Below are positions 17,431-60,975 of a stretch of DNA of 64,000 nucleotides, one piece after another (position 1 is the first letter of the stretch; the number at the start of each line of letters is the position of its first letter). Under the pieces are notes generated by a model. That model did not search any database and was not told where the DNA came from. It worked only from the letters and a program-made list of their open reading frames with translations. Source of the DNA: an uncultured Planctomycetota bacterium (GTDB lineage Bacteria > Planctomycetota > Planctomycetia > Isosphaerales > Isosphaeraceae); assembly GCA_963845755.1 (NCBI GenBank), contig CAWJTV010000034.1, positions 480,001 through 544,000 on the forward strand. The letters are read 5' to 3'. The position numbers and the translations under genes are program-made.

Positions 17431-19293
17431 ATGGACCGCATCTTCAGAGGGACTTCGCGCGTGTTGATCGCAGTGTTCGTGGCGGTGGCGACGGCGGGCC
17501 TTGCGATGGCGCAGCAAGCCGCGGTGGTTGGGACGCTCGACGGCCACACCGAGGCCGTTTACTCGGTCGCCTGGAGTCCGGACGGCAAGACGCTGGCGAC
17601 GGCCGGATTCGACAACACGGTCCGGTTCTGGGACGTCGCCAAACGCAAGGAGATCCAGAAGTACGAAGGGCATTCCAAGCTGGTCCTTGCCGTCGCGATC
17701 TCGCCGAACGGGCGGCAGATCCTCTCCGGGAGCATCGATAACACCGCAAAGGTCTGGGACGTTCCGTCATTCGAACCGCGGCGTCTGGACGCCGGGCAAC
17801 CGATCAACTCCTTCGCGCTGAGCGACGATGGGACCAAGTTGGCGACCGGCGGCGATGACAAGATTCTGCGGATCTGGAACCGGACCGATTGGAAGCTGAT
17901 CCGGGAAATCTCAGTAGCGGACCAGCCGATTGTCTCCGTCGCGTTCCGCCAGGATGGATCTCAGATCGCCCTGGCCCTCGCGAACAAGTCGGTGCGGATT
18001 TGCGGCGTCGCCGACGGCAAGGAGGTCAAGAAAATCGAAGGCTTACCGTCGCCGATCACTTCGATAGCGTTCCGGGCGGATGGCTCGCGGCTAGCGATCG
18101 CCGGAGAGGACAACATGATCCGGATCGTCGGCGCCGGTGATGGCAAGACCATCAAGGAGCTGAAGGGACACACCGGGCGGATTCACGCTTTGGCATTCGC
18201 GCCGAAGGACGGCAACCAGATGGCTTCGGGATCGGCCGACAAGACGGCCCGGCTCTGGGACACGAATCAGGGGAAAACTTTGCGGACCTTGGCGGGCCAT
18301 GGGGACGCCGTTGGCGGCCTGGGTTTCAGCCGGGATGGCACCAAGCTCGTGACCGGCTCGCAGGACAAGACGGTCCGAACCTGGAACGCGGCCGACGGCA
18401 AGCTACTCCTGGCGATCCCGGGGCTCCCGGCCGGAGTGAGTGCCGTGGCTGTCTCGGGCAACGGTGCACTCACGGCGGCGGGCCTGACGGACGGGACCGT
18501 CAAGGTCTTCGACACGGCGGCGACCCAGGCCGCGAAGTCCGAGCGTGCCACCTACCGGGGCTCCGCTAGCCCGGTGACCGGGCTGGCATTCTTGCCGGAT
18601 TCGACCGGGCTGATCTCCGCCTCCACCGACAAGACCGTCGAACTCTGGACACTTCCTTCTTCCGCGGCATTCAAGACATTCACAGGCCATACCGGCCAAA
18701 TTTATGGCGTCGCCTGGAGCCCCGACGGCAAGCTGGCGGCGACCGCGGCCGCCGACAAGACGGCGCGGATCTGGGATGTGGCCAAGGGGACCTCGCTCCG
18801 ATCGATCGCCGCCGATCCCAACGTTGTCTATGCCGTCGCGTTCGGCCGCAAGGGAGACGTGCTCGCCACTGGCGGTGACGACAAGTTGATCAAGTACTGG
18901 AACGTCGCCGACGGCAAGGAACTGCGGAAGAGTCAGGGCCACGGCGCCGCGGTCTATAGCCTGGCCTTTCATCCCGACGGCACCACGCTGGCTTCCGGCT
19001 CGGTCAACAAGACCGTGCGAATCTGGAACGTGACCGATGGCAAGGAGCGACACAAGCTCGACGGGCACCCTTATGAAATCTACTCGATCTCCTTCAGTCC
19101 CGACGGTCAGAAACTGGCTTCGGTCGACGTCGGCGGCACCCTGTTCGTCTGGAACGTCTCCGAGGCCAAGCCGATCTTTCACCAACGCGTGGCCGCGGAC
19201 ATCATGACCTACGGCGTAGCCTGGAGTCCCGATGGGTCTCAACTGGCCGTCGCCGGGTCGAACAACAGGACGTACCTGCTGAAACTGCCGTGA
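17431..19293 (+). CDS. secreted WD40-repeat protein
   Basis: AAGGAG ribosome-binding site, signal peptide, many GH...WD repeats. Confidence 0.9.
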   Translation: MDRIFRGTSRVLIAVFVAVATAGLAMAQQAAVVGTLDGHTEAVYSVAWSPDGKTLATAGFDNTVRFWDVAKRKEIQKYEGHSKLVLAVAISPNGRQILSGSIDNTAKVWDVPSFEPRRLDAGQPINSFALSDDGTKLATGGDDKILRIWNRTDWKLIREISVADQPIVSVAFRQDGSQIALALANKSVRICGVADGKEVKKIEGLPSPITSIAFRADGSRLAIAGEDNMIRIVGAGDGKTIKELKGHTGRIHALAFAPKDGNQMASGSADKTARLWDTNQGKTLRTLAGHGDAVGGLGFSRDGTKLVTGSQDKTVRTWNAADGKLLLAIPGLPAGVSAVAVSGNGALTAAGLTDGTVKVFDTAATQAAKSERATYRGSASPVTGLAFLPDSTGLISASTDKTVELWTLPSSAAFKTFTGHTGQIYGVAWSPDGKLAATAAADKTARIWDVAKGTSLRSIAADPNVVYAVAFGRKGDVLATGGDDKLIKYWNVADGKELRKSQGHGAAVYSLAFHPDGTTLASGSVNKTVRIWNVTDGKERHKLDGHPYEIYSISFSPDGQKLASVDVGGTLFVWNVSEAKPIFHQRVAADIMTYGVAWSPDGSQLAVAGSNNRTYLLKLP

Positions 19294-40782: not shown

Positions 40783-41451
40783 CCATGCTGATCTCGCAGT
40801 CGTGATTTCCGGGTGTGGGCTGTCGATGAGGTGGGCGCGCACGATGACTTACAGATATTATGGGACACTTGAGCGTGCCTGGCCACGAATTCTGGAAGAA
40901 AAGTTGGCGGCGACCGGGTGTCGCCGAGGGCGAGTCGGGAAGATATACCTTTGAAGGTCAAGGGCCGCCGGCCGTGATGGCGGTATGGGAGGAGTTCCGC
41001 TCGAGGTGTGGGCTGGCCATCAGTGCAACGTCGAACCGGGCGGACAGCACGGCGAGCCGGTGGCCCAGGCATGGGCTCACGTCCTCGGCTCGCCATCTGA
41101 ACACCAGAGCAGGGGGAACGGCCGGCGGATCATGCCCTGCTGCGCCGATTATCACGCGGGTGATCTGCTCGCGGCCTTGGTCAGGTCCCGGGTGACCATC
41201 GGAAGCCGTAGAGAAGGCGCCCGCATCAGGGGTCTTCGTCCGCCGGAACAGGGAAGAGTGCAGAGGGGGTTCGGGGGAGAGGGGACGTGTCACGCGACAC
41301 CAAGTTGGATCGCGAAATCCCGACACCCGGTTTGATCGTACCTGCTCATCGGTGCGCGTTTATGGGTCGAAGGTGACAGTCGTTCAGGAGCGAAAAGGGC
41401 GGCAGCGTCAGAGCCGATCCAGCCCGCAGAGGGCCAGAGGCAACCCCTGTG

Positions 41452-41481
41452 GGTGCTTCGGTGTCGTCGGACGAATGGCAC
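41452..41481 (+). other. putative recombination core site S1
   Basis: GGTGCTTCGGT-GTCGTCGG-ACGAATGGCAC. Confidence 0.65.
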
Positions 41482-41695
41482 TAGCTTAAGCGTAACACTT
41501 TATGCCATTTGAGCTTAAGTGCGGATCTCCAGACATATTTTCAACGATTGTAGATATTCGCTTGTAATATTGATAGAGAGTTTAGCCTCAAATCAAGCCA
41601 CATGGACCCAACCTCATATCCTCCTGAATACTATTAATGGGCAAACCGTCGCGACACAACTCGTTTTCTGAAAACGAGTTACGCTTAAGCTAGTG
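41471..41695. repeat. non-coding linker L1 (233 bp including 44134-44141); right arm interrupted by intron copy 1
   Basis: terminal inverted repeat ACGAATGGCACTAGCTTAAGCGTAAC; AT-rich core homologous to L2. Confidence 0.8.
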
Positions 41696-44133
41696 ATGAG
41701 GTAGGCGGCCAGCCCCTTGATCTCAAGGGAATCCAACCGCCCCCTCCCGAACCGGACAGGCACGTTTTCGTGCATCCGGCTCTCCAGACACAGGATCTAC
41801 ATTTGTGTCACGGTCCAACCCGGTATGCCAGGTCCGCCAGTCGGAGGCCATCATATTCTCCTCGGTGGATCTTACGGTGGCACTCTCGGCAGACGGGCAC
41901 TTGCTTCCGGTTCTGGAGTCGCATCAGCCAGGCAAACCCACCGACAGGTTTGCCCTCCATCTTTCGGATGTGACGGACGTGGTGCATCTGCACCCCGACC
42001 GTTGTTTCGCAGATGATGCATGGGTGGTCCAGGCGGGACCTTGTCCGGAATCGGACGTGCATCTCCAGTGGGTCGGTTTGATCTCTTCCCGTTAGAAATG
42101 CCGTGGGGTTCCGGGTCCAGTCGGAGTTGGCTTTGAAGAAGGTGTTCCGTTCCTTCCCCTCGCCGTCTTTCCAGTTGAATTGCAGAGTGCGTCCGTGTTC
42201 GCAGAGGAGCTGCTTAACGGGCTTCTGCAACTTGTGGGCTAAGGTCTTCGCAAGTGACAAATGCAGGATGTACTGGATACGGCTCATGGAGGCGAAGTTG
42301 TCAGCAAACCTGTAGTAGTTCAACAGCCCCCAATTGGTGCTGTTGAACAGTTCGATGATGTGCTTCACCTCCAGGCAGACCCACGCTGTCTTGGATCGGG
42401 CGATGCCCTCACCGTCACAGAAGCCCTTCTGGTGAAGACGCTTGACCAGTTTCCTGATCGGCGCTCGCATCAGCGGGCTCCACCCCGTACACCGGCGCCG
42501 GTAGTGCCGCCGTTGGTTGTGGCAGTGGGTAACCTTGGGCTGTGGGTTGACGGCCCCCACCTGAAGCCGCGTCCCGAGAAAGAAGGCCTCCTCGGTCTTG
42601 GCGTGAGTGACGACCGTCTTTTCCTGGCTGAGTTGCAGTTTCAGCCTGTCCCATAGGAACGCCTGAATCTCGTCCTTGATCTGTTCGGCCAGGGACCTCG
42701 GCCCCGTGACGCCGACGATCCAATCGTCTGCATATCTGATGTATTTGACTCTGACGAAGCCAGGGTCAAACGTGTCCATCGACGGGAGAGATCGCATCTG
42801 TTTCGTCAAAGCGCGAATCTCCGGCGTCATGATCCCACCTGACCGTTTCAACGCTCGCTGCCTGCGATAGTTGATCCGGTGATACTCGGGGCTGTCCTTC
42901 CGCTTGCTGCCCTTCTCGTACTTCTGCTGTAGTCCCTCGACGAAGAGGTCGAGTTCGTGCAGGTAGATGTTGGCGAGGATAGGGCTGGCCACGCTCCCCT
43001 GCGGGGTCCCGATAAACGAGGCCCCCGGTTCCTTCCTCCATAGGTAGCCTGCCCGGAGTGCTTTCCAGATCAGGCCGATGAAGCGTTCGTCCGAGATCCT
43101 CTTCCGGATCAGGGAAACCAGGACGTGGTGATCGATCTCGTCGAAGCAGGATTTTATATCCCCTTCGATGATCCACGTCACACCAGACCACTTGGTCCTG
43201 AACTCATGCAGGGCCGTGTGAGTCCCTCGACCAGGCCGAAAACCATGGCTACAGTCGCTAAAGGTAGGCCCTTTCGGACTGTCGTAGATCGCTTCGAGGA
43301 TCACATGGATGACCTCTTGGACGATCTTGTCCCTTGGGGATGAGATGCCGAGAGGCCGCATCTTGCCATTTGCCTTGGGAATGTATTCCCGCCGCGAAGG
43401 CTTGAATTGGAAACCCTCGTCTCGCAGGGTCGCCACGATGTCGTCGATGGCATCCATGGAGAACCCATCGAGAGTCATCCCGTCGGTGCCAGGAGTCAAG
43501 TTCCCGGGAGCGGATTTGATTTTCTCATACGCGACGATGTAGAGATCCGTCTTGTAGAGGAGTCGATACAGATCCGCGTTGACCCAGTTGAGGTCCGTGT
43601 TGCACTTCCGCAGTGCTTCAAGCCTGAGTAGGGCTGAATGACTCATCCGAGTCACCCCGTTCTTGGTGAAGCCCTGTGTCCTGTCCCCCTTGGGCCGATG
43701 CCTACTACGGGGACTCTGTCGCCTTGGGCATTGCTGCCGTTAGGCGATCCCGTGGTTGTCGGTCAGGTCCGGTCCACGTTGAGGGCCTCCGTTCATCCCT
43801 TGCCCCTGCTCATTGCAGGGTGTGTCCTGCCGGAAGATCACGGAGGTGAATGGCATGCCCCCGTGAGACAGGAATCCGGGTTTCAGCGTCATTCCCGGCG
43901 GTGATCGAGCACACCCACTGGGACTGGAGTTCAAGCAATCCAGCCTTACCCATGCGTGGCCTAACTTGCGAACGTCTCTCGGCCCTTTGACGCTGGGCCT
44001 CACGTCGCTTCTTCCGCATGCTGTTGTCCCCTCGATCCTTTCGGTTGAAGGTCAGCGGAACGTTTGACCCGCCTTCTTCCAGCGGGGTCGGGGCACTCCC
44101 GACAAGACCAGACAAACCTTAGCCACGGCGCAC
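41696..44133 (-). mobile_element. group IIA (ML class, LtrB-like) intron, copy 1, 2,438 nt
   Basis: 5' GTGCG at 44133-44129; domain V/VI and terminal ...CCTACCTCAT at 41696; removal restores GAATGG|CACTAG. Confidence 0.93.
41808..43646 (-). CDS. ltrA: intron-encoded reverse transcriptase/maturase with HNH endonuclease (LtrA-like)
   Basis: RPLGI, GTPQGSVASPILANIYL, YIRYADD, C-terminal CIIC..HH..CRECH; ATG at 43646 (ORF track uses GTG 43655). Confidence 0.93.
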   Translation of the reverse strand: MSHSALLRLEALRKCNTDLNWVNADLYRLLYKTDLYIVAYEKIKSAPGNLTPGTDGMTLDGFSMDAIDDIVATLRDEGFQFKPSRREYIPKANGKMRPLGISSPRDKIVQEVIHVILEAIYDSPKGPTFSDCSHGFRPGRGTHTALHEFRTKWSGVTWIIEGDIKSCFDEIDHHVLVSLIRKRISDERFIGLIWKALRAGYLWRKEPGASFIGTPQGSVASPILANIYLHELDLFVEGLQQKYEKGSKRKDSPEYHRINYRRQRALKRSGGIMTPEIRALTKQMRSLPSMDTFDPGFVRVKYIRYADDWIVGVTGPRSLAEQIKDEIQAFLWDRLKLQLSQEKTVVTHAKTEEAFFLGTRLQVGAVNPQPKVTHCHNQRRHYRRRCTGWSPLMRAPIRKLVKRLHQKGFCDGEGIARSKTAWVCLEVKHIIELFNSTNWGLLNYYRFADNFASMSRIQYILHLSLAKTLAHKLQKPVKQLLCEHGRTLQFNWKDGEGKERNTFFKANSDWTRNPTAFLTGRDQTDPLEMHVRFRTRSRLDHPCIICETTVGVQMHHVRHIRKMEGKPVGGFAWLMRLQNRKQVPVCRECHRKIHRGEYDGLRLADLAYRVGP

Positions 44134-44159
44134 CCATTCGTCGATCACACCGAGGCAAG
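44134..44159 (-). other. putative recombination core site S2 (A-arm split by intron)
   Basis: (GTG|)CCATTCGT-CGATCAC-ACCGAGGCAAG. Confidence 0.6.
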
Positions 44160-44380
44160 CAAGCAGTAGAGGGATGACGATCTGCCTGGCTCCGCGCGGC
44201 GGTTGCGGCGCGGGGGCGTTCCGTTCACGATTGACCCGCCAGGTCTTCGGTCTCGCGTCCATCCTCGGATCCTCTCCTGTGGTAAGAAGAAGGATGACGA
44301 AGAGGCCGCCAGCCGGATACCCGGTCCTTCAATACCTGCAATTCGGTAGGATCAGGAGAATCGCAAGGGAGCCTCGCATC

Positions 44381-45163
44381 ATGAGCATCTTCGACCGATT
44401 CAAATTGACGGGAAAGCGTCTCTTCATCACGGGAGGTAGTCGCGGCTTGGGACGGGAGATGGCACTCGCGATCGCCGAGGCCGGCGCCGACGTGATCCTC
44501 GTTGGCCGCGACCCGGCAGGTTTGGAGAAGGCAGCCGGCGACATCCGCGCCCTGGGCCGCCAATGCTGGACCCTCGCGGCGGACGTCGGAAAGCCGGCCG
44601 AATGCGAAGAGGCGTGCCGGTTGGCTCTGGATCATCACGGCCCGATCGACATTCTGATCAACAACGTGGGCGGCCGGCACGAGAACATCCCCACGGAAGC
44701 GATGTCGCTCGACAAATGGCGCGAGCTGATCGACCTGAACCTCACCAGCTGCATGCAATGTACGAAATGGCTCGGCGCGGCGATGATCGAGCGCGGCGGG
44801 GGCGGGCGAATCATTAACATCGCTTCGATCAACGCGCTCGTGGCGGGGCGTGGCATCACGGGCCGGCACTACGAGACAGCGAAGGCGGCGATGCTTCAGT
44901 TCACCCGCGCGGTCGCGGCCGACTGGGCGGTGCACAAGATCACGGTAAACGCCATCCTGCCGGGCGGCTTCATGACAGAGGCGAACCAGCGCTGGTCCGA
45001 AATCCATCCGGAGGTGATCGAGCAGTTCCGCGCCAATATCCCGCTGGGCGATTTCGGCCAGCCGGAGGATCTTGGGCCGCTCGCGGTGTACCTGGCCAGC
45101 GACGCCTCGCGCTACATGACCGGGGCAGCCCTGGTGATCGACGGCGGGTACACGTTGTGGTAG
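44381..45163 (+). CDS. SDR family NAD(P)-dependent oxidoreductase (cargo 1)
   Basis: TGGSRGLG, DILINNVG, INIAS, YETAK (YxxxK), VIDGG. Confidence 0.92.
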   Translation: MSIFDRFKLTGKRLFITGGSRGLGREMALAIAEAGADVILVGRDPAGLEKAAGDIRALGRQCWTLAADVGKPAECEEACRLALDHHGPIDILINNVGGRHENIPTEAMSLDKWRELIDLNLTSCMQCTKWLGAAMIERGGGGRIINIASINALVAGRGITGRHYETAKAAMLQFTRAVAADWAVHKITVNAILPGGFMTEANQRWSEIHPEVIEQFRANIPLGDFGQPEDLGPLAVYLASDASRYMTGAALVIDGGYTLW

Positions 45164-45215
45164 GAAGACTGACGCGGGAATGTGATCACGCCAGTCTCCT
45201 TGTCGAGGACTTGAA

Positions 45216-46035
45216 ATGAACGGACCCAGAACGGTCAGATCGTTCGTGTCAAGTAGCCCGGAGTATCATCGGGCATTCCAAGCGTTCCTGGCCCACACTG
45301 ACCAGAAGGACAAGGCCAGGGAGTGGATAAGGCACGAGGTCGACGGGCTCGCGAATCGGTCGGTCATGATTGACGCGGGCGCCGGCAGCGGGCGGCTCAC
45401 TTCGTGGCTCACTCCGCTGTTCGGGACTGTGATCGCCATCGAACCGAACCCCTCCATGGAGTCGGAGCTTCGGATCGCTTGCCCAGACGCGGTGGTGATC
45501 GCCGCCACGATCGCCTCGGCCTCACCGCCGACGGCAGGGGACTTCGTGCTGTGCTCGCACGTGTTCTATCACATCCCCCGGTCGCAGTGGGAAGCGACCT
45601 TGCTGCACTTGATGGGCTGGCTAGCTCCCGGGGGCGTTCTCGCCGTCGCGTTGCAGAACCCCCGTGCTGACTGCATGCGCATGGTCAACCATTTCCTCGG
45701 GGGCCGCCTCGATCTGAGCGAGCTTTGCCCGATGGCGAACGCAGAGGATGGTGAGTATGAGGCACGGCTGGAGACCGTTCCTGCTCACATTCGCGCGCCC
45801 GACCTCGGGACAGCCTGCGAGATCGCCGAATTCTTCCTGAATGACCTGCCCATGCCCGCGCCACCGAGGTGGGAGGACCTGGAGCATTACGTTGAACGAG
45901 CATTTCAAGCAGGCCGAAGGTGGTTACCAGCTCTCGTGTCATCAAGACTTCTTACGAGTCTCCAGATCGATTGGATCGCCTCTATCGGCGATAAGAGCGG
46001 ACCGTCCGCACGGGGCGCGGCGGTCGTCCCCTTGA
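45216..46035 (+). CDS. class I SAM-dependent methyltransferase (cargo 1), frameshift near 45900
   Basis: MIDAGAGSG, IAIEPN, DFVLCSHVFYHI, LAPGG. Confidence 0.82.
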
Positions 46036-46199
46036 TCTGGGGGCGAGAGCTTCTGCGCCAAACGGTGCAGGGACTGGACCACCGTTCGGCTCGTCTCGGG
46101 AGGCCGACGGTTGATTGGCGGCTGGATGGACCGGACTATCTGGGTCTGGGACGCGACGCCGCTGCCGGAATAGCAGCGAGGGTGGGGACACTGTTCGCA

Positions 46200-46400
46200 G
46201 TCGTCCTCAATCGGCCGGCTCCGCCCGTGCAGACCTCACCTTCCTCGCGATGACGCGGCAGCGGTTCGGTCGGCCGCAAGAGGCCCGAGAGGGCCTCGAC
46301 CGCCTCCGGGAGAACCTGGAGGACCCAGCCCGCGCTAGATGGCGAGGCCCCGGGCTTCTTGCGCGAGGCCCGAGCGGTCTTTGCCGCTTCACGCCGTTGG
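46200..46400 (+). pseudogene. remnant resembling the TPR-like C-terminus of planctomycete Ser/Thr kinases
   Basis: DLTFLAMTRQRFGRPQEAREGLDRLRE; no intact start. Confidence 0.4.
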
Positions 46401-46481
46401 CCTGCGAGCCACGCTGCTGAACGATCAGCCCGGCGTGCCGCGTCGCCGTGATCTCGCCGCCGTGGAGCGCCTTCCTTTTGC

Positions 46482-46746
46482 GCGCGTCGGTCCGACGACA
46501 CGAATGGCACTAGCCTAAGCGTAAGTCGCTGATACTAAGTGACTTGTGTCTGTGACGGTCGGGGTTCTTGCAGAGAATACCCGACTATGATCATGATTTG
46601 ACGATGGGCTAGCCGGGAAACCAAGGCCTCAGATGGAGCCCCTAGGAATCCGGTCCATGGATCAAGGAAGTCCATTGTTTGCAAGTTCAATTTCTGCCAG
46701 AGGTTGCGCTTATGCTAGTGCCATTCGTGTCGTCGGACCGACGCGC
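46482..46746. repeat. linker L3 (46500-46728) with core sites S3 and S4 forming a 33-bp perfect inverted repeat
   Basis: GCGCGTCGGT-CCGACGAC-ACGAATGGCACTAGC at 46482-46514 and its exact reverse complement at 46714-46746. Confidence 0.85.
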
Positions 46747-46841
46747 AGAGAGCCGTTCCACAAGACGCCGGTGAATCCAGAACTAACCGCGTCCCTGTTC
46801 CCCTCCCTTGGATACAAATTCAAGAGGACTCGGTTTCACGC

Positions 46842-47389
46842 TCAAGCGAATCCCTTGTCTTTGAGCCACTTCTCAATCACAGATGGAAGGGTGGTGCCCG
46901 GGTTTCTCGTGTCGAAGGGCTTGTAGAGTTTGCCGTTCAGATCGGCTTGAAGGGTCTTGAGAGTCTTGTCCTTCAGCAGTAAGACCGGCTTGTTGAGGGC
47001 CATCATGTAGCCGACCTCTAGGCCGACATTGGGATTGAACTCCTCTTGCTCGATCCGATCGAAGATGGCGATGCCGAAGCCGCAGCCGTGCATGTAGGTC
47101 TTGATATTGGAGAAGGTGTCGTCGTCGTATTCCTTGTGATCGGCCCGCATGGCGGCAATTCCATGCTTTGCGGTCGTCTCCTGGATCACACGGACGATGT
47201 CACTGTGAGCGTCGGTCTCGGTGAACCGCATCATATGAAGGCGGCCTTGCGTGGGTCGGGATGCTCAGCCTGGAACGCCTGGAGGCTTTCTTGGATATCG
47301 GGCGGCAAAGATGGAAGGCTTGGCTTCGGCGGTAATGCTTTGCTTCTTCGTCCAGATGGGCGAGTCGAGACTGAACCTGGATCAGGCAT
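46842..47389 (-). CDS. nucleoside-deoxyribosyltransferase/TIR-like domain protein (cargo 2), frameshift near 47234; start uncertain
   Basis: AFI|MMRF, RAD, GIAIFD, NPNVGLEVGYMMALNKPVLLL, LQADL. Confidence 0.7.
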
Positions 47390-47565
47390 CTCAACGAGCG
47401 CAGCACTCGAATAGTTCGCCAGGCGCCGCCCCTTTCCTTCGTCCCACACGCATTCAAGATTGCTAAACATTGAGTCTACTTGCGCAGTATGGGTAAGCTG
47501 GCCCCCCCCTCAGACTACGCAGTCCGCTTGGAATATTAGCAATATCCCTCGGCAAAGACGAGGAA

Positions 47566-48660
47566 TCAGCTCGAGCCGAGTCCCTCATACTCGGGGGATA
47601 GCCGGTAACTCCGCGACTTCCTGGCCGGGTCAACCACGAGCACGAACCCGCCGCTCACCCATGAAGAGAGGATGTTCCGGGCCGTCCTCTGGGAGACGCC
47701 GAAGAGGCCCTCGACGTCGCGGCTGGTGATGACGACCGAGCGGCGGAAGAGCTCCAGGGCCCGGCGCCGGCGGGGGTCGAGGCGACGCAGCGCGGCCGAG
47801 TCATCCCTCATGCCCCGGTCGGCGGCCTCCCGGGCGCGGCGGCGGACGCTCTCGAAGCTGTCGGCCATGCCCGCGCAGAAGTATTCGACCCACGCCGTGA
47901 TGTCCGCCTCGGCACGGCCCTGATAGTAATTGTGCGACGGCCCGACCGCCAATGCCCGGTAGTAGGCCGACAGGTCTCTGGCGTAGTATTCTTCCAGCGA
48001 ATAGAGCCCCTTCAGGTCGTACCCGCCCCGGTGGAGGATCAGGGTCGTCAGGAGCCTCGCCGTGCGGCCGTTGCCGTCGTAGTAGGGGTGGATCGTGGCG
48101 AACTGGTAGTGGGCGATCCCGGCGCGGATCGGGCACGGGACGCCCTCGTGCTCGCTGCGCCGGAGCCAGTCGACGAGCTCCTCCATGAGCCGGGGGACAT
48201 CCGATGCCTCCGGGGGCATGTAGACGATCCGACGGCTGCCGGCGTCGCGGATCACGTTCTGCCCGCCCCGGTATGGGGTGGGCTTCTTCACCGCCTTGCC
48301 GCTGGCCATCACGAGGGCGTGAAGGGTTCGGACCTGGAGGTCCGTCACGTCCCCTCCCTGGGCCGCGAATCGTTCGAGCCGCTCGATCGCCGCGTAGTAG
48401 CCGAGGACCTCGGCCTCGTCTCGCTCCCGGCCCGGGAAATGCCTCCCCTGCTCGATCAACGAGGAGACCTCCTCCCGAGCGAGGCGGTTGCCCTCGATCA
48501 TCGTGGAGTAGTGGGTGGAGAAGAGCCGCGCGGTCTCGCGGAGGCCGGCGAGCACGGAGGACGTGATCGGCAGGTCCTCCACGGCCTGCCGGGCCGCCTC
48601 GATCCTCATGAGGTGGGTCGCGGTGCGGGGCGTGATCCGGTAGTTGGGCTCGAACGGCAT
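47566..48660 (-). CDS. Fic family protein with C-terminal HTH (cargo 2)
   Basis: STMIEGN; HPYYDGNGRTAR Fic motif. Confidence 0.92.
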   Translation of the reverse strand: MPFEPNYRITPRTATHLMRIEAARQAVEDLPITSSVLAGLRETARLFSTHYSTMIEGNRLAREEVSSLIEQGRHFPGRERDEAEVLGYYAAIERLERFAAQGGDVTDLQVRTLHALVMASGKAVKKPTPYRGGQNVIRDAGSRRIVYMPPEASDVPRLMEELVDWLRRSEHEGVPCPIRAGIAHYQFATIHPYYDGNGRTARLLTTLILHRGGYDLKGLYSLEEYYARDLSAYYRALAVGPSHNYYQGRAEADITAWVEYFCAGMADSFESVRRRAREAADRGMRDDSAALRRLDPRRRRALELFRRSVVITSRDVEGLFGVSQRTARNILSSWVSGGFVLVVDPARKSRSYRLSPEYEGLGSS

Positions 48661-48979
48661 TCGGCGGCACTTTCTCGGTCGGTTTCCTTGCCGTTATTGT
48701 GCCGTTAAAGTGCCGATAAATCAAGCGATCGGTGTGGGTCGAGGTAGGCACTCTGCTCACAACCTGGGACGCGTATCTGGATTGCGGCGTCGCCGGCGAG
48801 GCGGCGGGGGGTGAACGCCGACATTGCGATTAGTCCGACGCTTGGGCGGTCTAGACAAGCGCATGTCCCGCCGGGCCGGCTCGATGGCCGCCCCGCCCCG
48901 GGCCCGGCCCGGCCGATCGCCGGACGGAGCCGGTTCGTCCAACAGACGGGGCGGAGTCGGGCCGGAGCCGGCGACGTTG

Positions 48980-49005
48980 CTTGCTTCGGTGGGATCGACG
49001 AATGG
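48980..49005 (+). other. putative recombination core site S5 (A-arm split by intron)
   Basis: CTTGCTTCGGT-GGGATCG-ACGAATGG(|CAC). Confidence 0.65.
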
Positions 49006-51443
49006 GTGCGCCGTGGCTAAGGTTTGTCTGGTCTTGTCGGGAGTGCCCCGACCCCGCTGGAAGAAGGCGGGTCAAACGTTCCGCTGACCTTCAACCGAAA
49101 GGATCGAGGGGACAACAGCATGCGGAAGAAGCGACGTGAGGCCCAGCGTCAAAGGGCCGAGAGACGTTCGCAAGTTAGGCCACGCATGGGTAAGGCTGGA
49201 TTGCTTGAACTCCAGTCCCAGTGGGTGTGCCCGATCACCGCCGGGAATGACGCTGAAACCCGGATTCCTGTCTCACGGGGGCATGCCATTCACCTCCGTG
49301 ATCTTCCGGCAGGACACACCCTGCAATGAGCAGGGGCAAGGGATGAACGGAGGCCCTCAACGTGGACCGGACCTGACCGACAACCACGGGATCGCCTAAC
49401 GGCAGCAATGCCCAAGGCGACAGAGTCCCCGTAGTAGGCATCGGCCCAAGGGGGACAGGACACAGGGCTTCACCAAGAAAGGGGTGACTCGGATGAGTCA
49501 TTCAGCCCTACTCAGGCTTGAAGCACTGCGGAAGTGCAACACGGACCTCAACTGGGTCAACGCGGATCTGTATCGACTCCTCTACAAGACGGATCTCTAC
49601 ATCGTCGCGTATGAGAAAATCAAATCCGCTCCCGGGAACTTGACTCCTGGCACCGACGGGATGACTCTCGATGGGTTCTCCATGGATGCCATCGACGACA
49701 TCGTGGCGACCCTGCGAGACGAGGGTTTCCAATTCAAGCCTTCGCGGCGGGAATACATTCCCAAGGCAAATGGCAAGATGCGGCCTCTCGGCATCTCATC
49801 CCCAAGGGACAAGATCGTCCAAGAGGTCATCCATGTGATCCTCGAAGCGATCTACGACAGTCCGAAAGGGCCTACCTTTAGCGACTGTAGCCATGGTTTT
49901 CGGCCTGGTCGAGGGACTCACACGGCCCTGCATGAGTTCAGGACCAAGTGGTCTGGTGTGACGTGGATCATCGAAGGGGATATAAAATCCTGCTTCGACG
50001 AGATCGATCACCACGTCCTGGTTTCCCTGATCCGGAAGAGGATCTCGGACGAACGCTTCATCGGCCTGATCTGGAAAGCACTCCGGGCAGGCTACCTATG
50101 GAGGAAGGAACCGGGGGCCTCGTTTATCGGGACCCCGCAGGGGAGCGTGGCCAGCCCTATCCTCGCCAACATCTACCTGCACGAACTCGACCTCTTCGTC
50201 GAGGGACTACAGCAGAAGTACGAGAAGGGCAGCAAGCGGAAGGACAGCCCCGAGTATCACCGGATCAACTATCGCAGGCAGCGAGCGTTGAAACGGTCAG
50301 GTGGGATCATGACGCCGGAGATTCGCGCTTTGACGAAACAGATGCGATCTCTCCCGTCGATGGACACGTTTGACCCTGGCTTCGTCAGAGTCAAATACAT
50401 CAGATATGCAGACGATTGGATCGTCGGCGTCACGGGGCCGAGGTCCCTGGCCGAACAGATCAAGGACGAGATTCAGGCGTTCCTATGGGACAGGCTGAAA
50501 CTGCAACTCAGCCAGGAAAAGACGGTCGTCACTCACGCCAAGACCGAGGAGGCCTTCTTTCTCGGGACGCGGCTTCAGGTGGGGGCCGTCAACCCACAGC
50601 CCAAGGTTACCCACTGCCACAACCAACGGCGGCACTACCGGCGCCGGTGTACGGGGTGGAGCCCGCTGATGCGAGCGCCGATCAGGAAACTGGTCAAGCG
50701 TCTTCACCAGAAGGGCTTCTGTGACGGTGAGGGCATCGCCCGATCCAAGACAGCGTGGGTCTGCCTGGAGGTGAAGCACATCATCGAACTGTTCAACAGC
50801 ACCAATTGGGGGCTGTTGAACTACTACAGGTTTGCTGACAACTTCGCCTCCATGAGCCGTATCCAGTACATCCTGCATTTGTCACTTGCGAAGACCTTAG
50901 CCCACAAGTTGCAGAAGCCCGTTAAGCAGCTCCTCTGCGAACACGGACGCACTCTGCAATTCAACTGGAAAGACGGCGAGGGGAAGGAACGGAACACCTT
51001 CTTCAAAGCCAACTCCGACTGGACCCGGAACCCCACGGCATTTCTAACGGGAAGAGATCAAACCGACCCACTGGAGATGCACGTCCGATTCCGGACAAGG
51101 TCCCGCCTGGACCACCCATGCATCATCTGCGAAACAACGGTCGGGGTGCAGATGCACCACGTCCGTCACATCCGAAAGATGGAGGGCAAACCTGTCGGTG
51201 GGTTTGCCTGGCTGATGCGACTCCAGAACCGGAAGCAAGTGCCCGTCTGCCGAGAGTGCCACCGTAAGATCCACCGAGGAGAATATGATGGCCTCCGACT
51301 GGCGGACCTGGCATACCGGGTTGGACCGTGACACAAATGTAGATCCTGTGTCTGGAGAGCCGGATGCACGAAAACGTGCCTGTCCGGTTCGGGAGGGGGC
51401 GGTTGGATTCCCTTGAGATCAAGGGGCTGGCCGCCTACCTCAT
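49006..51443 (+). mobile_element. group IIA (ML class, LtrB-like) intron, copy 2, 2,438 nt
   Basis: GTGCG at 49006; EBS2 near 49231-49238; delta/EBS1 TGCCATTC 49284-49291; domain V 51357-51390 (GAGCCGGATGCACGAAAACGTGCCTGTCCGGTTC); ends CCTACCTCAT at 51443. Confidence 0.93.
49493..51331 (+). CDS. ltrA: intron-encoded reverse transcriptase/maturase with HNH endonuclease (LtrA-like); translation identical to copy 1
   Basis: same motifs as copy 1; AAGGGGTG ribosome-binding site before ATG 49493. Confidence 0.93.
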   Translation: MSHSALLRLEALRKCNTDLNWVNADLYRLLYKTDLYIVAYEKIKSAPGNLTPGTDGMTLDGFSMDAIDDIVATLRDEGFQFKPSRREYIPKANGKMRPLGISSPRDKIVQEVIHVILEAIYDSPKGPTFSDCSHGFRPGRGTHTALHEFRTKWSGVTWIIEGDIKSCFDEIDHHVLVSLIRKRISDERFIGLIWKALRAGYLWRKEPGASFIGTPQGSVASPILANIYLHELDLFVEGLQQKYEKGSKRKDSPEYHRINYRRQRALKRSGGIMTPEIRALTKQMRSLPSMDTFDPGFVRVKYIRYADDWIVGVTGPRSLAEQIKDEIQAFLWDRLKLQLSQEKTVVTHAKTEEAFFLGTRLQVGAVNPQPKVTHCHNQRRHYRRRCTGWSPLMRAPIRKLVKRLHQKGFCDGEGIARSKTAWVCLEVKHIIELFNSTNWGLLNYYRFADNFASMSRIQYILHLSLAKTLAHKLQKPVKQLLCEHGRTLQFNWKDGEGKERNTFFKANSDWTRNPTAFLTGRDQTDPLEMHVRFRTRSRLDHPCIICETTVGVQMHHVRHIRKMEGKPVGGFAWLMRLQNRKQVPVCRECHRKIHRGEYDGLRLADLAYRVGP

Positions 51444-51668
51444 CACTAGCTTAAGCGTAACAGCTTATGCCATTGGAGTTTAGGCACGGGTCGTCAGGCA
51501 TATTTTCAGCGATTGCAAATATTCGCTTGTAATATTGATAGAGGATTTGGCCTCAATTCAAGCCACATGGACCCAGCCTTATATCCTCCTGAGTACTACT
51601 GATGGGATAAACATTGCGACGCAACTCATTTTCTAAAAAAGAGTTACGCTTAAGCTAGTGCCATTCGT
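51444..51668. repeat. non-coding linker L2 (233 bp including 48998-49005); left arm interrupted by intron copy 2
   Basis: same terminal inverted repeat and length as L1, with a diverged but alignable core. Confidence 0.8.
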
Positions 51669-51686
51669 GGGATCGACCGAAGCACC
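51658..51686 (-). other. putative recombination core site S6
   Basis: GTGCCATTCGT-GGGATCG-ACCGAAGCACC. Confidence 0.65.
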
Positions 51687-51928
51687 TTCGAAACATGCCT
51701 TGTGGCTGGACGCCACTCTGTGCGTCTGTCACCTTCGACTCGTGAACGGGCACCGATGAAGAGGTTCGATCAAACCGGGTGTCGGGATTTCGCGATCCAA
51801 CTTGGTGTCGCGTGACAGGACGCGTCTCCTCCGAAACTCATCACGAGCGCGGGCGAAGCCCGCCACCGCTGGCGTTGGCGCCTAGAGCGATTCACGCTTG
51901 GGTGGCTGACGGTCGGGGGACAGAGCCC

Positions 51929-53325
51929 CATACGAAACTGGTTAAGCCGCAATCCTTGGTGCGAACAGCAGTTGTCGCGTACTGGGGCGTTTCTTCCGTC
52001 GGCCACGCCGGGGCAAACGACTCAAGCGGACTCGCAGTTTCTCCAACACCCGCCGCAACCGCGCTGGGTCGCTCAGCGCCGCGGCGATTTGCAATGCCAG
52101 CCGCTTCACCCGCCGAGCCGCCCGGACCAGGCTGATCCCACACAGGGGCCCTCCGCGCAGCAGCGTCCCCCAGTGCTGCACCAGCATCCCCAACAGCTTG
52201 GCATACCTCTCGCACAACACCCGCTGGCCCCGCCGACCCCGCGTCCGGTCCACACCCCCTCCCGATTTCCACGCCTTATACAACAACTCCACCTGCCAGC
52301 GGACACGATAAAGCACGCAGATTTCTTCAATTGTCAACGTGCCCGCCGGCAAATCGGTGATCAGCACCGTCCCCTGGCACATCACGCGCTGGCGATCACT
52401 CAGCGTCTTCCCCTTCTTCCGCAGCTCCTTTCGCAGCCGACGCAATCGGATCTCGGCCACCTCCCGGGGCACCCGCAGGGCCACCAACCGACAGCCCAAG
52501 GTCGCCTTGGTCCCCAGGACGACCGTAGTGTCGATCCGACCCTCCGTTTGCCGATCCAACCACGCGCTGATATTGACCCCACCCGGCTCACCGGCTCGCA
52601 CTTTCAACTGCGCCGGGACGCGGCTGATAAAGTGAATCCCCTTCTGCTGATCGGCGGCCAGTCGTTCCAGGTCGAAAAAGCCCAGGTCGCACAACCGCAG
52701 GCTGTTGGCAGGTAAGGGCGCCAGCTCCTCGGCCAGGGTTCGCTCAGAATCGCGCGCCGGTGCCGGTGGCTGAATCTCCAAGCGGCCGGTGGTCACATCC
52801 CACCGCGTCAAGAGCTTCCATCCCGCTTGACCGCCTTGGGGATCAGAGCCACCACAGCCGGGGAAGGATCCGGCCAATTCGGCCGGCAACCCGACGATGG
52901 TGACGTCCTCGACGGAAACGGTCGCGAAGCGGCGCAACAGCGGAATCATCTCGGGCCGGGCCGCGAACAGCAGGTTCAACGCCTTCTCGAGCACCCGACG
53001 CAAACAGTCCGCGGCGCGGGCGTTGAAGCGTTCGTTGAAAGCCGCCTCGCTGATGTCGAGGTCTTCAATGATCTCCTCAATGGTGGCGTCGGGATTCTCC
53101 AGCCAATGAAAGACCAGGGCCTGGACGAATCGGGACCCGGTGAGCTTGCGCTGGCGCCGAATCATGCCGGAATCCTTGGCAGCCTCATCGGCGTCGGTGG
53201 TGAAGAGGGCTTGCAAGGCATCAGCCAGTTGATCGATCGTGATGGTCATCCGGTACTCCTCCGGTGCGGAAATACTGATCAAATGTATTGTACCAGAGGA
53301 GTTACTTCTTAACCAGTTTCTCATG
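51929..53325 (-). mobile_element. IS4-family insertion sequence (~1.4 kb)
   Basis: terminal inverted repeats CATACGAAACTGGTTAAG / CATGAGAAACTGGTTAAG (16 of 18 match). Confidence 0.85.
51942..53249 (-). CDS. IS4 family transposase
   Basis: RRQRKL, DLGFFD, YRVRWQVELLYKAWKS (YREK motif). Confidence 0.9.
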   Translation of the reverse strand: MTITIDQLADALQALFTTDADEAAKDSGMIRRQRKLTGSRFVQALVFHWLENPDATIEEIIEDLDISEAAFNERFNARAADCLRRVLEKALNLLFAARPEMIPLLRRFATVSVEDVTIVGLPAELAGSFPGCGGSDPQGGQAGWKLLTRWDVTTGRLEIQPPAPARDSERTLAEELAPLPANSLRLCDLGFFDLERLAADQQKGIHFISRVPAQLKVRAGEPGGVNISAWLDRQTEGRIDTTVVLGTKATLGCRLVALRVPREVAEIRLRRLRKELRKKGKTLSDRQRVMCQGTVLITDLPAGTLTIEEICVLYRVRWQVELLYKAWKSGGGVDRTRGRRGQRVLCERYAKLLGMLVQHWGTLLRGGPLCGISLVRAARRVKRLALQIAAALSDPARLRRVLEKLRVRLSRLPRRGRRKKRPSTRQLLFAPRIAA

Positions 53326-53383: not shown

Positions 53384-54765
53384 TGTCACCCGACAGTAGG
53401 TTTTGCCGCGAATCCCGACAAAAAGGTTTTGCCGCCTCGTGGCGGGGGGTAGTCTGTGATGGTCCGATCCTGCCAACTCCTGCGAGGGTCACTATGCCCG
53501 CTCCACTCCCGCCGACAACCCGGCGCCTCATCTTGCTACGATCCCGTCGCGGCCAGACCGCGGCGGCCATCGCGGACGCCCTGCATCTCTGCCCCCGCAC
53601 GGTCCGGCACCTGCTCCAGCGGGCTCGCGACCCGGCGAGCCCTCAGGGGACCGCTTATCGGCCCGGTCCGGGGCGGCCCGCCGACGACCACCCGCTCCGA
53701 GCCCAGGCCCTGGCCCTGCGACAGCAGCATCCGACCTGGGGAGCGGGCTACATCCGCGTCCGCCTGGCCACCGAGGCCGACCCGGCGACGGTGCCTAGCG
53801 AGCGCGCACGTTGCGGCGCTGGTTCCGCCGCCAGCGGCACCCGCCTGCGGCGGGGGGACGGCGGTCGCCGTCGGCCGCCGACCGTGCCATCGCCCCGCAT
53901 GACATCTGGCAGAGGGACGCCGCGGAGCAACTCCGCACGGCCGACGGCCAGGGCGCTGCTGGCTGCGGCTGGTGGATGAATATACGGGGGCCTTCCTGGG
54001 CACCACGGTTTTCCCCCCACTACTACTGGGCCCACGTCCCCGAGGCCGAGGTGCAGCGGCACTTGCACCGCGCCTTCGAGCGGTGGGGGCTGCCGCGCCG
54101 CATGCGGGTCGATAACGGCAAGCCGTGGGGGTCCTGGAGCGACCTGCCCCCCGCGCTGGCGTTGTGGCTGATCGGCCTGGGGGTCGGCGTGATCTGGAAC
54201 GACCCGCGGCGGCCGCAACAGAACGGCGTGGTGGAGCGGTCGCAGGGGACGGCCAAGCGGTGGGCGGAGCCGCACGCCTGCGGCAACCCGGCGGAGCTGC
54301 AGGCCCGCCTGGACGCCGACGACCGGTTGCAGCGGGAGCGGTATCCCGTCGCCGGGGGACACAGCCGTTGGGAGCTGTTCCCGGGTCTGGCGCACAGCGG
54401 CCGCGCCTACCGCGAGGCGGACGAGGCCGGCGCGTGGTGCCGGGGGCGGGTGCGCGACCACCTAGCGGAGTGGGCCGTGCCGCGCCGGGTGGACAGCCAG
54501 GGAAAGGTGTCGATCTATAACAGGAATATCTATGTAGGAGTGTTATATGCGGGCCGGGACGTCTGGGTCCAGTTCGACCCGGGGCACGGCGAGTGGCTGA
54601 TCAACGACGGCGGGGGCCAGCAGCTGCGGGCCCGGCCGGCCCCCGAGATCGACGCGGAGTCGATCCGCGGGTTGCGATTGTCGGGACGGAAGTAGGGACC
54701 GCCGGGTGTCCATGCGGCAAAACCTTTATGTCGGGATTCGCGGCAAAACCTACTGTCGGGTGACA
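53384..54765 (+). mobile_element. IS481-like insertion sequence (1,382 bp)
   Basis: ~52-bp terminal inverted repeats TGTCACCCGACAGTAGGTTTTGCCGCGAATCCCGACA...; GCCCC duplication at 53379-53383 and 54766-54770. Confidence 0.88.
53494..54695 (+). CDS. HTH + integrase-core (DDE) transposase, frameshifted
   Basis: N-terminal HTH, HPTWGA, WQRD, RVDNGKPWG, PQQNGVVERS. Confidence 0.8.
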
Positions 54766-60799: not shown

Positions 60800-60975
60800 T
60801 TGCGCGCGTCAGTCGGATCGACGAATGACAGTAGACTAGGCGCAAGTGTTTTCTGATAAATGACTTGGACCTGTACAGGGCCGGTCGTTTAGGGGAAAAA
60901 TCTTAGTCTGTTCACATTATGATTAATTGGCTGGCCGGGAAACATAGGGCTCCAGATGGAGACCCCGAGAATCAA
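60800..60975 (+). repeat. degenerate core site S7 and partial L3-type linker
   Basis: TTGCGCGCGTCAGT-CGGATCG-ACGAATGACAGTAG; shares GACTTG, GCCGGGAAAC and CAGATGGAG with L3; no right arm found. Confidence 0.7.

Follow-up and report, generated by a model that had tools for sequence, protein, structure and literature searches.

Two copies of a group IIA (ML) intron were found in the window, the 64,000-nt stretch G000:C34:480001-544000 of a 14.3-Mb genome whose domain content is that of a planctomycete. Judged from sequence, this mobile intron very probably retrohomes into a composite target, made up of the tip of an IS4-type element and the duplicated spacer of the palindrome which that element had entered, and a sister lineage would use the same kind of palindrome when it is empty.

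Each intron copy was 2,438 nt long and the two lay in opposite orientations, copy 1 at 41696..44133 on the minus strand and copy 2 at 49006..51443 on the plus strand. They differed at 2 nt only, intron nucleotides 226 and 475, and neither mismatch altered the protein. An earlier note on this DNA had placed the two copies at an identical site in the arms named S2 and S5, and this was indeed the case: both shared one exon junction, with a 5' exon ending in ACGAATGG and a 3' exon starting with CACTAG (GAATGG|CACTAG). Group IIA introns have the bulged A 7 nt from the 3' end. The same distance was seen here, together with further features of IIA/ML RNA, namely a 5' GUGYG (GUGCG), a catalytic domain V, a domain VI with the bulged A and a 3' YAY (CAU). 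The 3' end of each copy matched Rfam RF00029.

The same 612-aa protein was encoded in both copies (49493..51331 on the plus strand in copy 2) and contained RVT_1, Intron_maturas2 and AI2M-like HNH domains, with the YADD motif of the reverse transcriptase intact. Its closest solved relative was LtrA, matched over the full protein length at an E-value of 3.5e-96 (the next two relatives gave 1e-31 and 2e-30), and the TIGR04416 score was 252 bits, under the family's cut-off of 300. The ML class was assigned from best matches, and the trees took in close homologues only. The class C attC type of intron, in which EBS1 is short, was ruled out by the HNH domain and by the presence of a 6-bp EBS1 plus an EBS2. 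The protein search across the order returned only homologues at 37–49% identity, all in other targets. Two other ML introns (L055 and L057, 38–40% identity) appeared to form twintrons, lying within domain V of a different group II intron.

The element that would recognise the 5' exon was located at 49284..49291 (plus strand), where TGCCATTC combines delta (TG) with EBS1 (CCATTC, 49286-49291) and is complementary to GAATGG|CA. It was the sole exact occurrence within the intron, and the single match with one mismatch fell in the ORF. Folding of the RNA, proposed earlier as a check, gave a divided result: TGCCATTC was located in an 11-nt loop closed by a 9-bp stem, whereas the fold of the whole domain I was no better than shuffled sequences (z -1.3), and the intron structure therefore rests on co-variation. 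We compared this loop in 14 intron rows, of which L099 lacked the anchor and L110 folded differently and scored 4. In 12 of the 13 anchored rows the loop held a 6-mer scoring 4.5–6 of 6 against its own exon, and in homologues with unrelated targets (L021, L022, L087 and L106) the score was 5–6 of 6. Wherever the 3' exon is known (six rows, two of them the window copies), its first base paired with the delta base, which lies immediately 5' of the EBS1 6-mer. As EBS1 and delta co-varied with unrelated targets, the IIA geometry was supported. We concluded that the window introns are probably ML/LtrA-type group IIA introns; the earlier identification of an LtrA-type IIA intron with HNH was borne out by the domains, the best match and this loop, and so was the proposal that the domain I loop makes the EBS1-IBS1 and delta-delta' pairings.

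On its sequence features, the arm into which the introns are inserted is the terminal inverted repeat (TIR) of approx. 228-bp IS4-type MITEs, not a cassette recombination arm. Genome-wide the arm occurred as pairs 226–231 bp apart; the window held six arms (S1–S6) within 41473-51666 and a degenerate seventh near 60823. Direct repeats of 11–12 bp were present outside the arm in 5 of 10 pairs of family A, to which the window arms belong. In the sister family B, matching duplications were found in 6 of 7 MITEs, their sequences being unrelated between copies. The same TIR bounded a 1,830-bp transposase-bearing IS at G000:C47, with a 12-bp duplication and a score of 212.7 bits against the IS4 model NF033592 (cut-off 115), and a similar transposase-bearing IS4 was found at G001:C9 (178.1 bits). 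Only about 16–18 nt of end sequence were common to MITE and IS. The arm thus shares its TIR with an IS4 transposase element and comes with a duplication of about one helix turn, as described for the IS4 family, in which the subgroup IS4 has strongly conserved target arms (PMC2266710). Because of the target duplications and the same end on IS4 transposase elements, S1–S6 were assigned as TIRs of three MITEs, and the view of the earlier note that the intron homes into the arm of cassette sites was rejected. The MITEs would be moved by the IS4 transposase in trans.

These MITEs interrupt a multicopy palindrome with a spacer of 7 nt (class Y) or 8 nt (class X); the foot consensus is TTGCGC, and many arms of the palindromes start with CGTC. 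Intron copy 1 interrupts MITE 1 (S1/S2, 41473..44139) at a distance of six nt from the right tip of the MITE. The flanks of MITE 1 are mismatched, an X half on the left and a Y half on the right, and its body shares 99% identity with MITEs at C2 and C47 that have no intron. MITE 2 (S3/S4, 46502..46726) is intron-free and both of its flanks are X halves, in inverted orientation. MITE 3 (S5/S6, 49000..51666), which intron copy 2 interrupts at a distance of six nt from the left tip, has an 11-bp target duplication (48989-48999 and 51667-51677). On the plus strand, the left half of a class-X palindrome was located at 41456..41472 and that of a class-Y palindrome at 48984..48999, the latter supplying IBS2 (48993-48998). 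Matching flanks were missing from half of the family-A units, two of the window's three among them, and these need a later rearrangement; recombination between copies can produce this, by analogy with ISRm22, for which mismatched flanks were ascribed to such recombination (PMC1525189). The degenerate seventh arm (60805-60850) consisted of a Y half-site and a decayed TIR, without intron. The family-B MITEs (230 bp, related TIR, 11-bp duplications, loose specificity) lay at G000:C5:535206, C5:820755, C11:690168, C12:183482, C25:15402, C25:139863 and C43:95017, and none was found carrying the window-type intron. Empty palindromes numbered 85 in the genome (40 X, 45 Y), and 40 of the 85 were within 10 kb of another, compared with 9.3 at random and at most 25 in any of 200 draws.

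The IS tip supplies only six bases of the 5' exon, and positions -8 to -13 come from the duplicated palindrome spacer. These positions would pair with a putative EBS2 at 49231..49236 (plus strand; CCGATC in copy 2), which corresponds to intron nucleotides 226-231, a position taken from co-variation and not from a folded loop. TCGATC was present there in 5 of the 6 main-type copies read, window copy 2 having one change, and pairs with GATCGA of forward class-Y flanks. The intron variant at C6, inserted at an X flank, had an altered EBS2 fitting that flank at 5 of 6 positions, and EBS2 was TCCGAC in the sister introns L103, L105 and L108. In these three sisters, as in the C6 variant, a change of spacer class went with a change of EBS2. 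Exceptions were L170 and L171, both at X flanks, L170 with a Y-type EBS2 and L171 with a poor fit; the fit in the two was poor or needed wobble pairs.

The target census agreed with this recognition. All 14 intron 5' ends in the genome lay at the IS4 tip (12 exact, 2 with one change) and none at an empty palindrome, and all seven 3' ends ran on into the TIR; the MITE bodies concerned differed, and both arms were used. The 5' end was present in 5 of 121 family genomes, and in four relatives 5 of 5 introns were at the tip (two in G001, one each in G021, G067 and G106). The specialisation on a multicopy mobile-DNA site that had been proposed earlier therefore held in the genome and in the relatives. 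Two soil runs contained further palindrome flanks ahead of the tip. Filled tips made up 11 of 15 in the Y-forward class versus 3 of 27 others (Fisher 8e-5, with copies that are not independent). EBS2 was readable only in C6 among the three filled G000 tips that were not Y-forward, and four Y-forward tips were without intron, one of them with a changed IBS1. We concluded that the fit of the outer flank to EBS2 largely predicts which tips are filled; the forward-Y preference accounts for S2 and S5 being filled and S1, S3, S4 and S6 being empty in the window.

Several intron copies were altered. Those at G000:C11:965048-967501 and C36:46509-49021 were broken by approx. 2.5-kb inserts, with a resolvase-family gene inside the C11 insert. 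ORF-less derivatives with domain IV deleted were found at G000:C45:4626-5424 and C6:61152-61739, and similar deletions occurred in RNA contigs of relatives (run X15). In the contigs of X15 (share 0.08), mostly from relatives, no ligated exons were detected, which speaks neither for nor against splicing.

From the sequences we propose the following course. As the sequences show, an IS4-family element or its approx. 228-bp MITE first enters the palindrome spacer and duplicates 11–12 bp. The pairings of the next step are likewise seen in the sequences: EBS1 matches the first six TIR nucleotides, delta the base after them and EBS2 the duplicated spacer that adjoins the element on its outer side. 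Only tips whose outer flank fits EBS2, mainly forward class-Y flanks, would be good targets. By comparison with Ll.LtrB, reverse splicing by the intron RNP between TIR nucleotides 6 and 7 would be followed by cleavage of the second strand by the HNH domain and by reverse transcription. Finally, the TIR tip would be parted from the inner TIR by 2.4 kb, which would immobilise that end of the MITE, and after insertion the intron would travel only with larger units. Hitch-hiking on the transposon and inactivation of the occupied site, both suggested earlier, may occur, the part broken by the intron being the MITE TIR. Among seven copies there was no case of a MITE that had kept its intron, in one body and one arm, and reappeared within a fresh duplication.

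The sister introns pointed to a change of target. Seven of 47 metagenome loci, at 82–92% protein identity to the window intron, did not show the IS tip. Their three readable 5' exons all ended in the palindrome's own arm, with no TIR, and their three readable 3' exons, likewise without TIR, ran into spacer and then a second palindrome. EBS1 was readable in five, as GCTTCG in four and GCGTCG in one. In L105 and L103 the insertion lay six bases past the GGAC of the spacer, the register of the IS seam; L108 had one extra base between arm and intron, and the flank of L103 was a degenerate palindrome. Since the empty-site sisters insert at the same distance from the spacer, the lineage would have been retargeted via EBS1 with the EBS2 register kept. 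Homologues at 54–69% identity used unrelated targets, the observation that had been set to count against a specialised intron; it applied at that distance, not to the close lineage with its 14 of 14 and 5 of 5 insertions at the tip. Unrelated targets at such identity are normal for group II introns and leave the window lineage untouched.

The direction of the switch is weakly in favour of empty palindrome to IS-filled site. When a tree was built from the 5' RNA, after excision of the EBS loops and with L087 as outgroup, the six IS-tip sequences formed a clade (81%) nested within five empty-site ones, which were paraphyletic; the support of the root was only 44–57%. The opposite order, with the IS tip as the original target and the empty-site introns descended from it, or a separate origin of both from a third target, is somewhat unlikely. 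It draws on the weakness of the deep nodes of the RNA tree and on the protein tree, where the window intron was sister to L084/P0002 and the ancestor was not resolved; the protein tree, which includes the 76–87% homologues P0003 and P0004 as proteins only, leaves the polarity undecided (L098, L106 and L110, being frameshifted, were read with X). Against it stand the nested position of the TIR type and the seam itself, which needs a pre-existing palindrome. The change from empty to filled site would thus be the likelier direction.

The two introns lie within a larger host unit (41352..51753) that is bounded by 28-bp IS66-like inverted repeats (41352-41379 and 51726-51753) and is without transposase. 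X lies approx. 106 nt inside the left end and Y about 72–73 nt inside the right end. The 28-bp repeat was present in 36 of 121 family genomes, with 19 ends in G000, and begins like the end of the IS66 at C34:641661 (such a repeat was seen at 1 of 17 IS66 loci). No autonomous element carrying this repeat was found. Elements derived from IS66 have GTAA-type inverted repeats and 8-bp duplications. Flanking duplications of the units studied here were 8/8 in L260 and 7/8 in L255, and none was seen in the other paired loci compared. Other non-autonomous IS66-like units, L249–L267 among them, were 0.5–18 kb long with varied cargo bounded by X/Y palindromes. The stretch of approx. 120 nt between the left inverted repeat and the X site (41351-41472) was conserved in about 30 family genomes. 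Outside the host unit, TGT...ACA ends with a 5-bp direct repeat (GGACG) were located at 41288..51817. Their first 51–61 bp match an approx. 1.39-kb element in relatives, which is probably IS481-like, and a Tn7/Tn5053 reading of these ends was dropped on this match. Adjoining the host unit were an IS4-family transposase gene (51942-53324) and an IS481-like element (53384-54765) that is broken and has inverted ends of 53 bp. Elsewhere in the window (17500-19050), WD40-like repeats (repeat families D2 and D3) were found in a long ORF.

Two cargo modules were present, module A (44140..46501) with a short-chain dehydrogenase and a methyltransferase-domain ORF, and module B (46727..48999) with a Fic-domain ORF and a weak nucleoside deoxyribosyltransferase-like ORF. 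The cargo varied between units, and no enzyme was common to them. This arrangement bears on the explanation that the 217–230 bp units are site-specific recombination (cassette) sites, with the arm as recombinase-binding sequence and the intron blocking exchange. The units do lie between gene modules, flanks do not match in 5 of 10 family-A pairs and in the S3/S4 unit of the window, and homology between loci often begins or stops at X/Y sites. Yet the same arm ends IS4 transposase elements and target duplications are present, the module ends recur at loci that lack a MITE (C39:361420 and C39:253422 versus C47/C2), and only 6 of the 85 empty sites have a tyrosine recombinase within 6 kb. Moreover, the genome has a true integron integrase, accompanied by two attC sites of the ordinary kind (G000:C3:153899-162186), around which no strict X/Y site was found in 25 kb and one lax X/Y-like match lay 12 kb away. 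For the arm this explanation is largely refuted and very unlikely. As the homology breaks at X/Y sites, the cassette idea may apply to the palindromes rather than to the arm, and the module boundary is likely the X/Y palindrome into which the MITEs inserted.

That one single insertion gave an intron-bearing MITE which then spread by transposition or duplication, with no ongoing homing, is hardly credible, even though the main intron copies are 99–100% identical and C9:311649 and C42:394860 have a flank in common, given that the MITE bodies of the copies differ by 15% or more, opposite arms are used, the intron splits the TIR and MITE 1 has its 99% identical intron-free sisters; the copies were therefore taken as independent insertions.

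We also searched for an enzyme acting on the X/Y palindromes. None was identified among the tyrosine recombinases (43 matches; of 31 loci, 6 lay no more than 6 kb from a site), Y1 transposases, resolvases or the integron integrase, nor among ORFs common to the units beside the left end (25 loci) or in the cargo (16 loci). Y2 enzymes gave no match in the genome, but the control search was also without match. The X pattern was found in none of 400 genomes of other families of the phylum, a sample without the window's own family, and in no viral contig, and Rfam at E<=5 gave no match for X/Y sites or for the 120-nt left end. An identity as integron attC sites was rejected, since RYYYAAC...GTTRRRY boxes were missing in that order and the integron at C3 has ordinary attC sites. 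REP/REPIN sequences are short palindromes arranged as inverted heterodimers, with a GTAG/CGTC tag and a Y1 (RAYT) transposase that they flank. By comparison, 12 of the 85 sites were within 60 bp of another (6 pairs, 4 of them X/Y), most being single and tied to IS66-like ends, and none of 10 Y1 genes had a listed X/Y site within 10 kb. Tentatively, X and Y may be the sites of exchange in an undescribed, integron-like system that shuffles modules between IS66-type ends and is carried by about 30% of family genomes. ML introns would first have colonised X/Y, and one branch, after the IS4 invasion, would have rewritten EBS1 to the IS4 tip, with EBS2 still directed at the host site, and would now parasitise and freeze the parasite of its former target. 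We regard this as possible, if doubtful as a whole.

Retrohoming into the composite site would mean that two unrelated elements can together make up a single homing site. Introns that are nearly alike (about 90% protein identity) but differ in EBS1 would use one site before and after its invasion, and with such a natural pair the evolution of group II target sites becomes directly testable by a six-base swap. The units that carry cargo in modules bounded by X/Y may be of greater importance than the intron; if the module-shuffling reading is true, natural retargeting has been caught with both states alive. In the literature, of which our coverage was incomplete, no description was found of a composite IS/target homing site, of natural EBS1 retargeting or of an IS66-like non-autonomous unit with X/Y sites.

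Ll.LtrB resides in a relaxase gene, whereas the window intron lies in non-coding multicopy DNA, where its splicing restores no protein. The RT-X-HNH layout and the recognition by EBS1, EBS2 and delta are shared with Ll.LtrB/LtrA (PMC4424553). Introns at palindromic sites between gene modules are also known as IIC-attC introns and UHB.I2 (PMC7923331). The latter, an integron intron of type IIB1/CL1, adjoins an attC, so the statement of the earlier note that attC-targeting introns are class IIC holds for that group but not strictly (PMC7923331). In IIC-attC introns a hairpin replaces IBS2 and no endonuclease is present (PMC7923331), whereas the window intron pairs by sequence from -13 to +1, and X/Y sites were not found in the genome's own integron. 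On the side of the MITEs, ISRm22 and the IS4 subgroup resemble them in insertion at the palindrome axis, conserved target arms and duplications of the 10-bp class (PMC1525189, PMC2266710); ISRm22 makes 6-bp repeats in REPs of S. meliloti (PMC1525189), in contrast to 11–12 bp in X/Y palindromes tied to IS66-like ends. The IS1202 family beside pdif sites of Acinetobacter dif modules (PMC10132070) is likewise specialised on module boundaries, and pdif sites are served by XerC/D, whereas no recombinase was identified for X/Y.

Mobile DNA is the usual home of group II introns (PMC3522654), and for RmInt1 a role in limiting its host IS has been proposed (PMC4238363). The targeting of IS inverted repeats is already known from RmInt2 of Sinorhizobium meliloti GR4, all copies of which lie in ISRm17 inverted repeats, with two potential sites per element (PMC4615759). 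It resembles the window intron in this target and in a relaxed EBS2/IBS2 pairing, and close relatives of RmInt2 are reported on other IS targets (PMC4615759). RmInt2 is a class D, IIB intron without endonuclease, and in the portion of that report available to us no sister intron on the pre-insertion site is described (PMC4615759). The window intron differs from it as an ML/IIA intron with HNH endonuclease that occupies mostly MITE ends, has a homing site from two elements, with IBS2 outside the element in the duplicated host palindrome, and has a sister lineage on the pre-insertion site.
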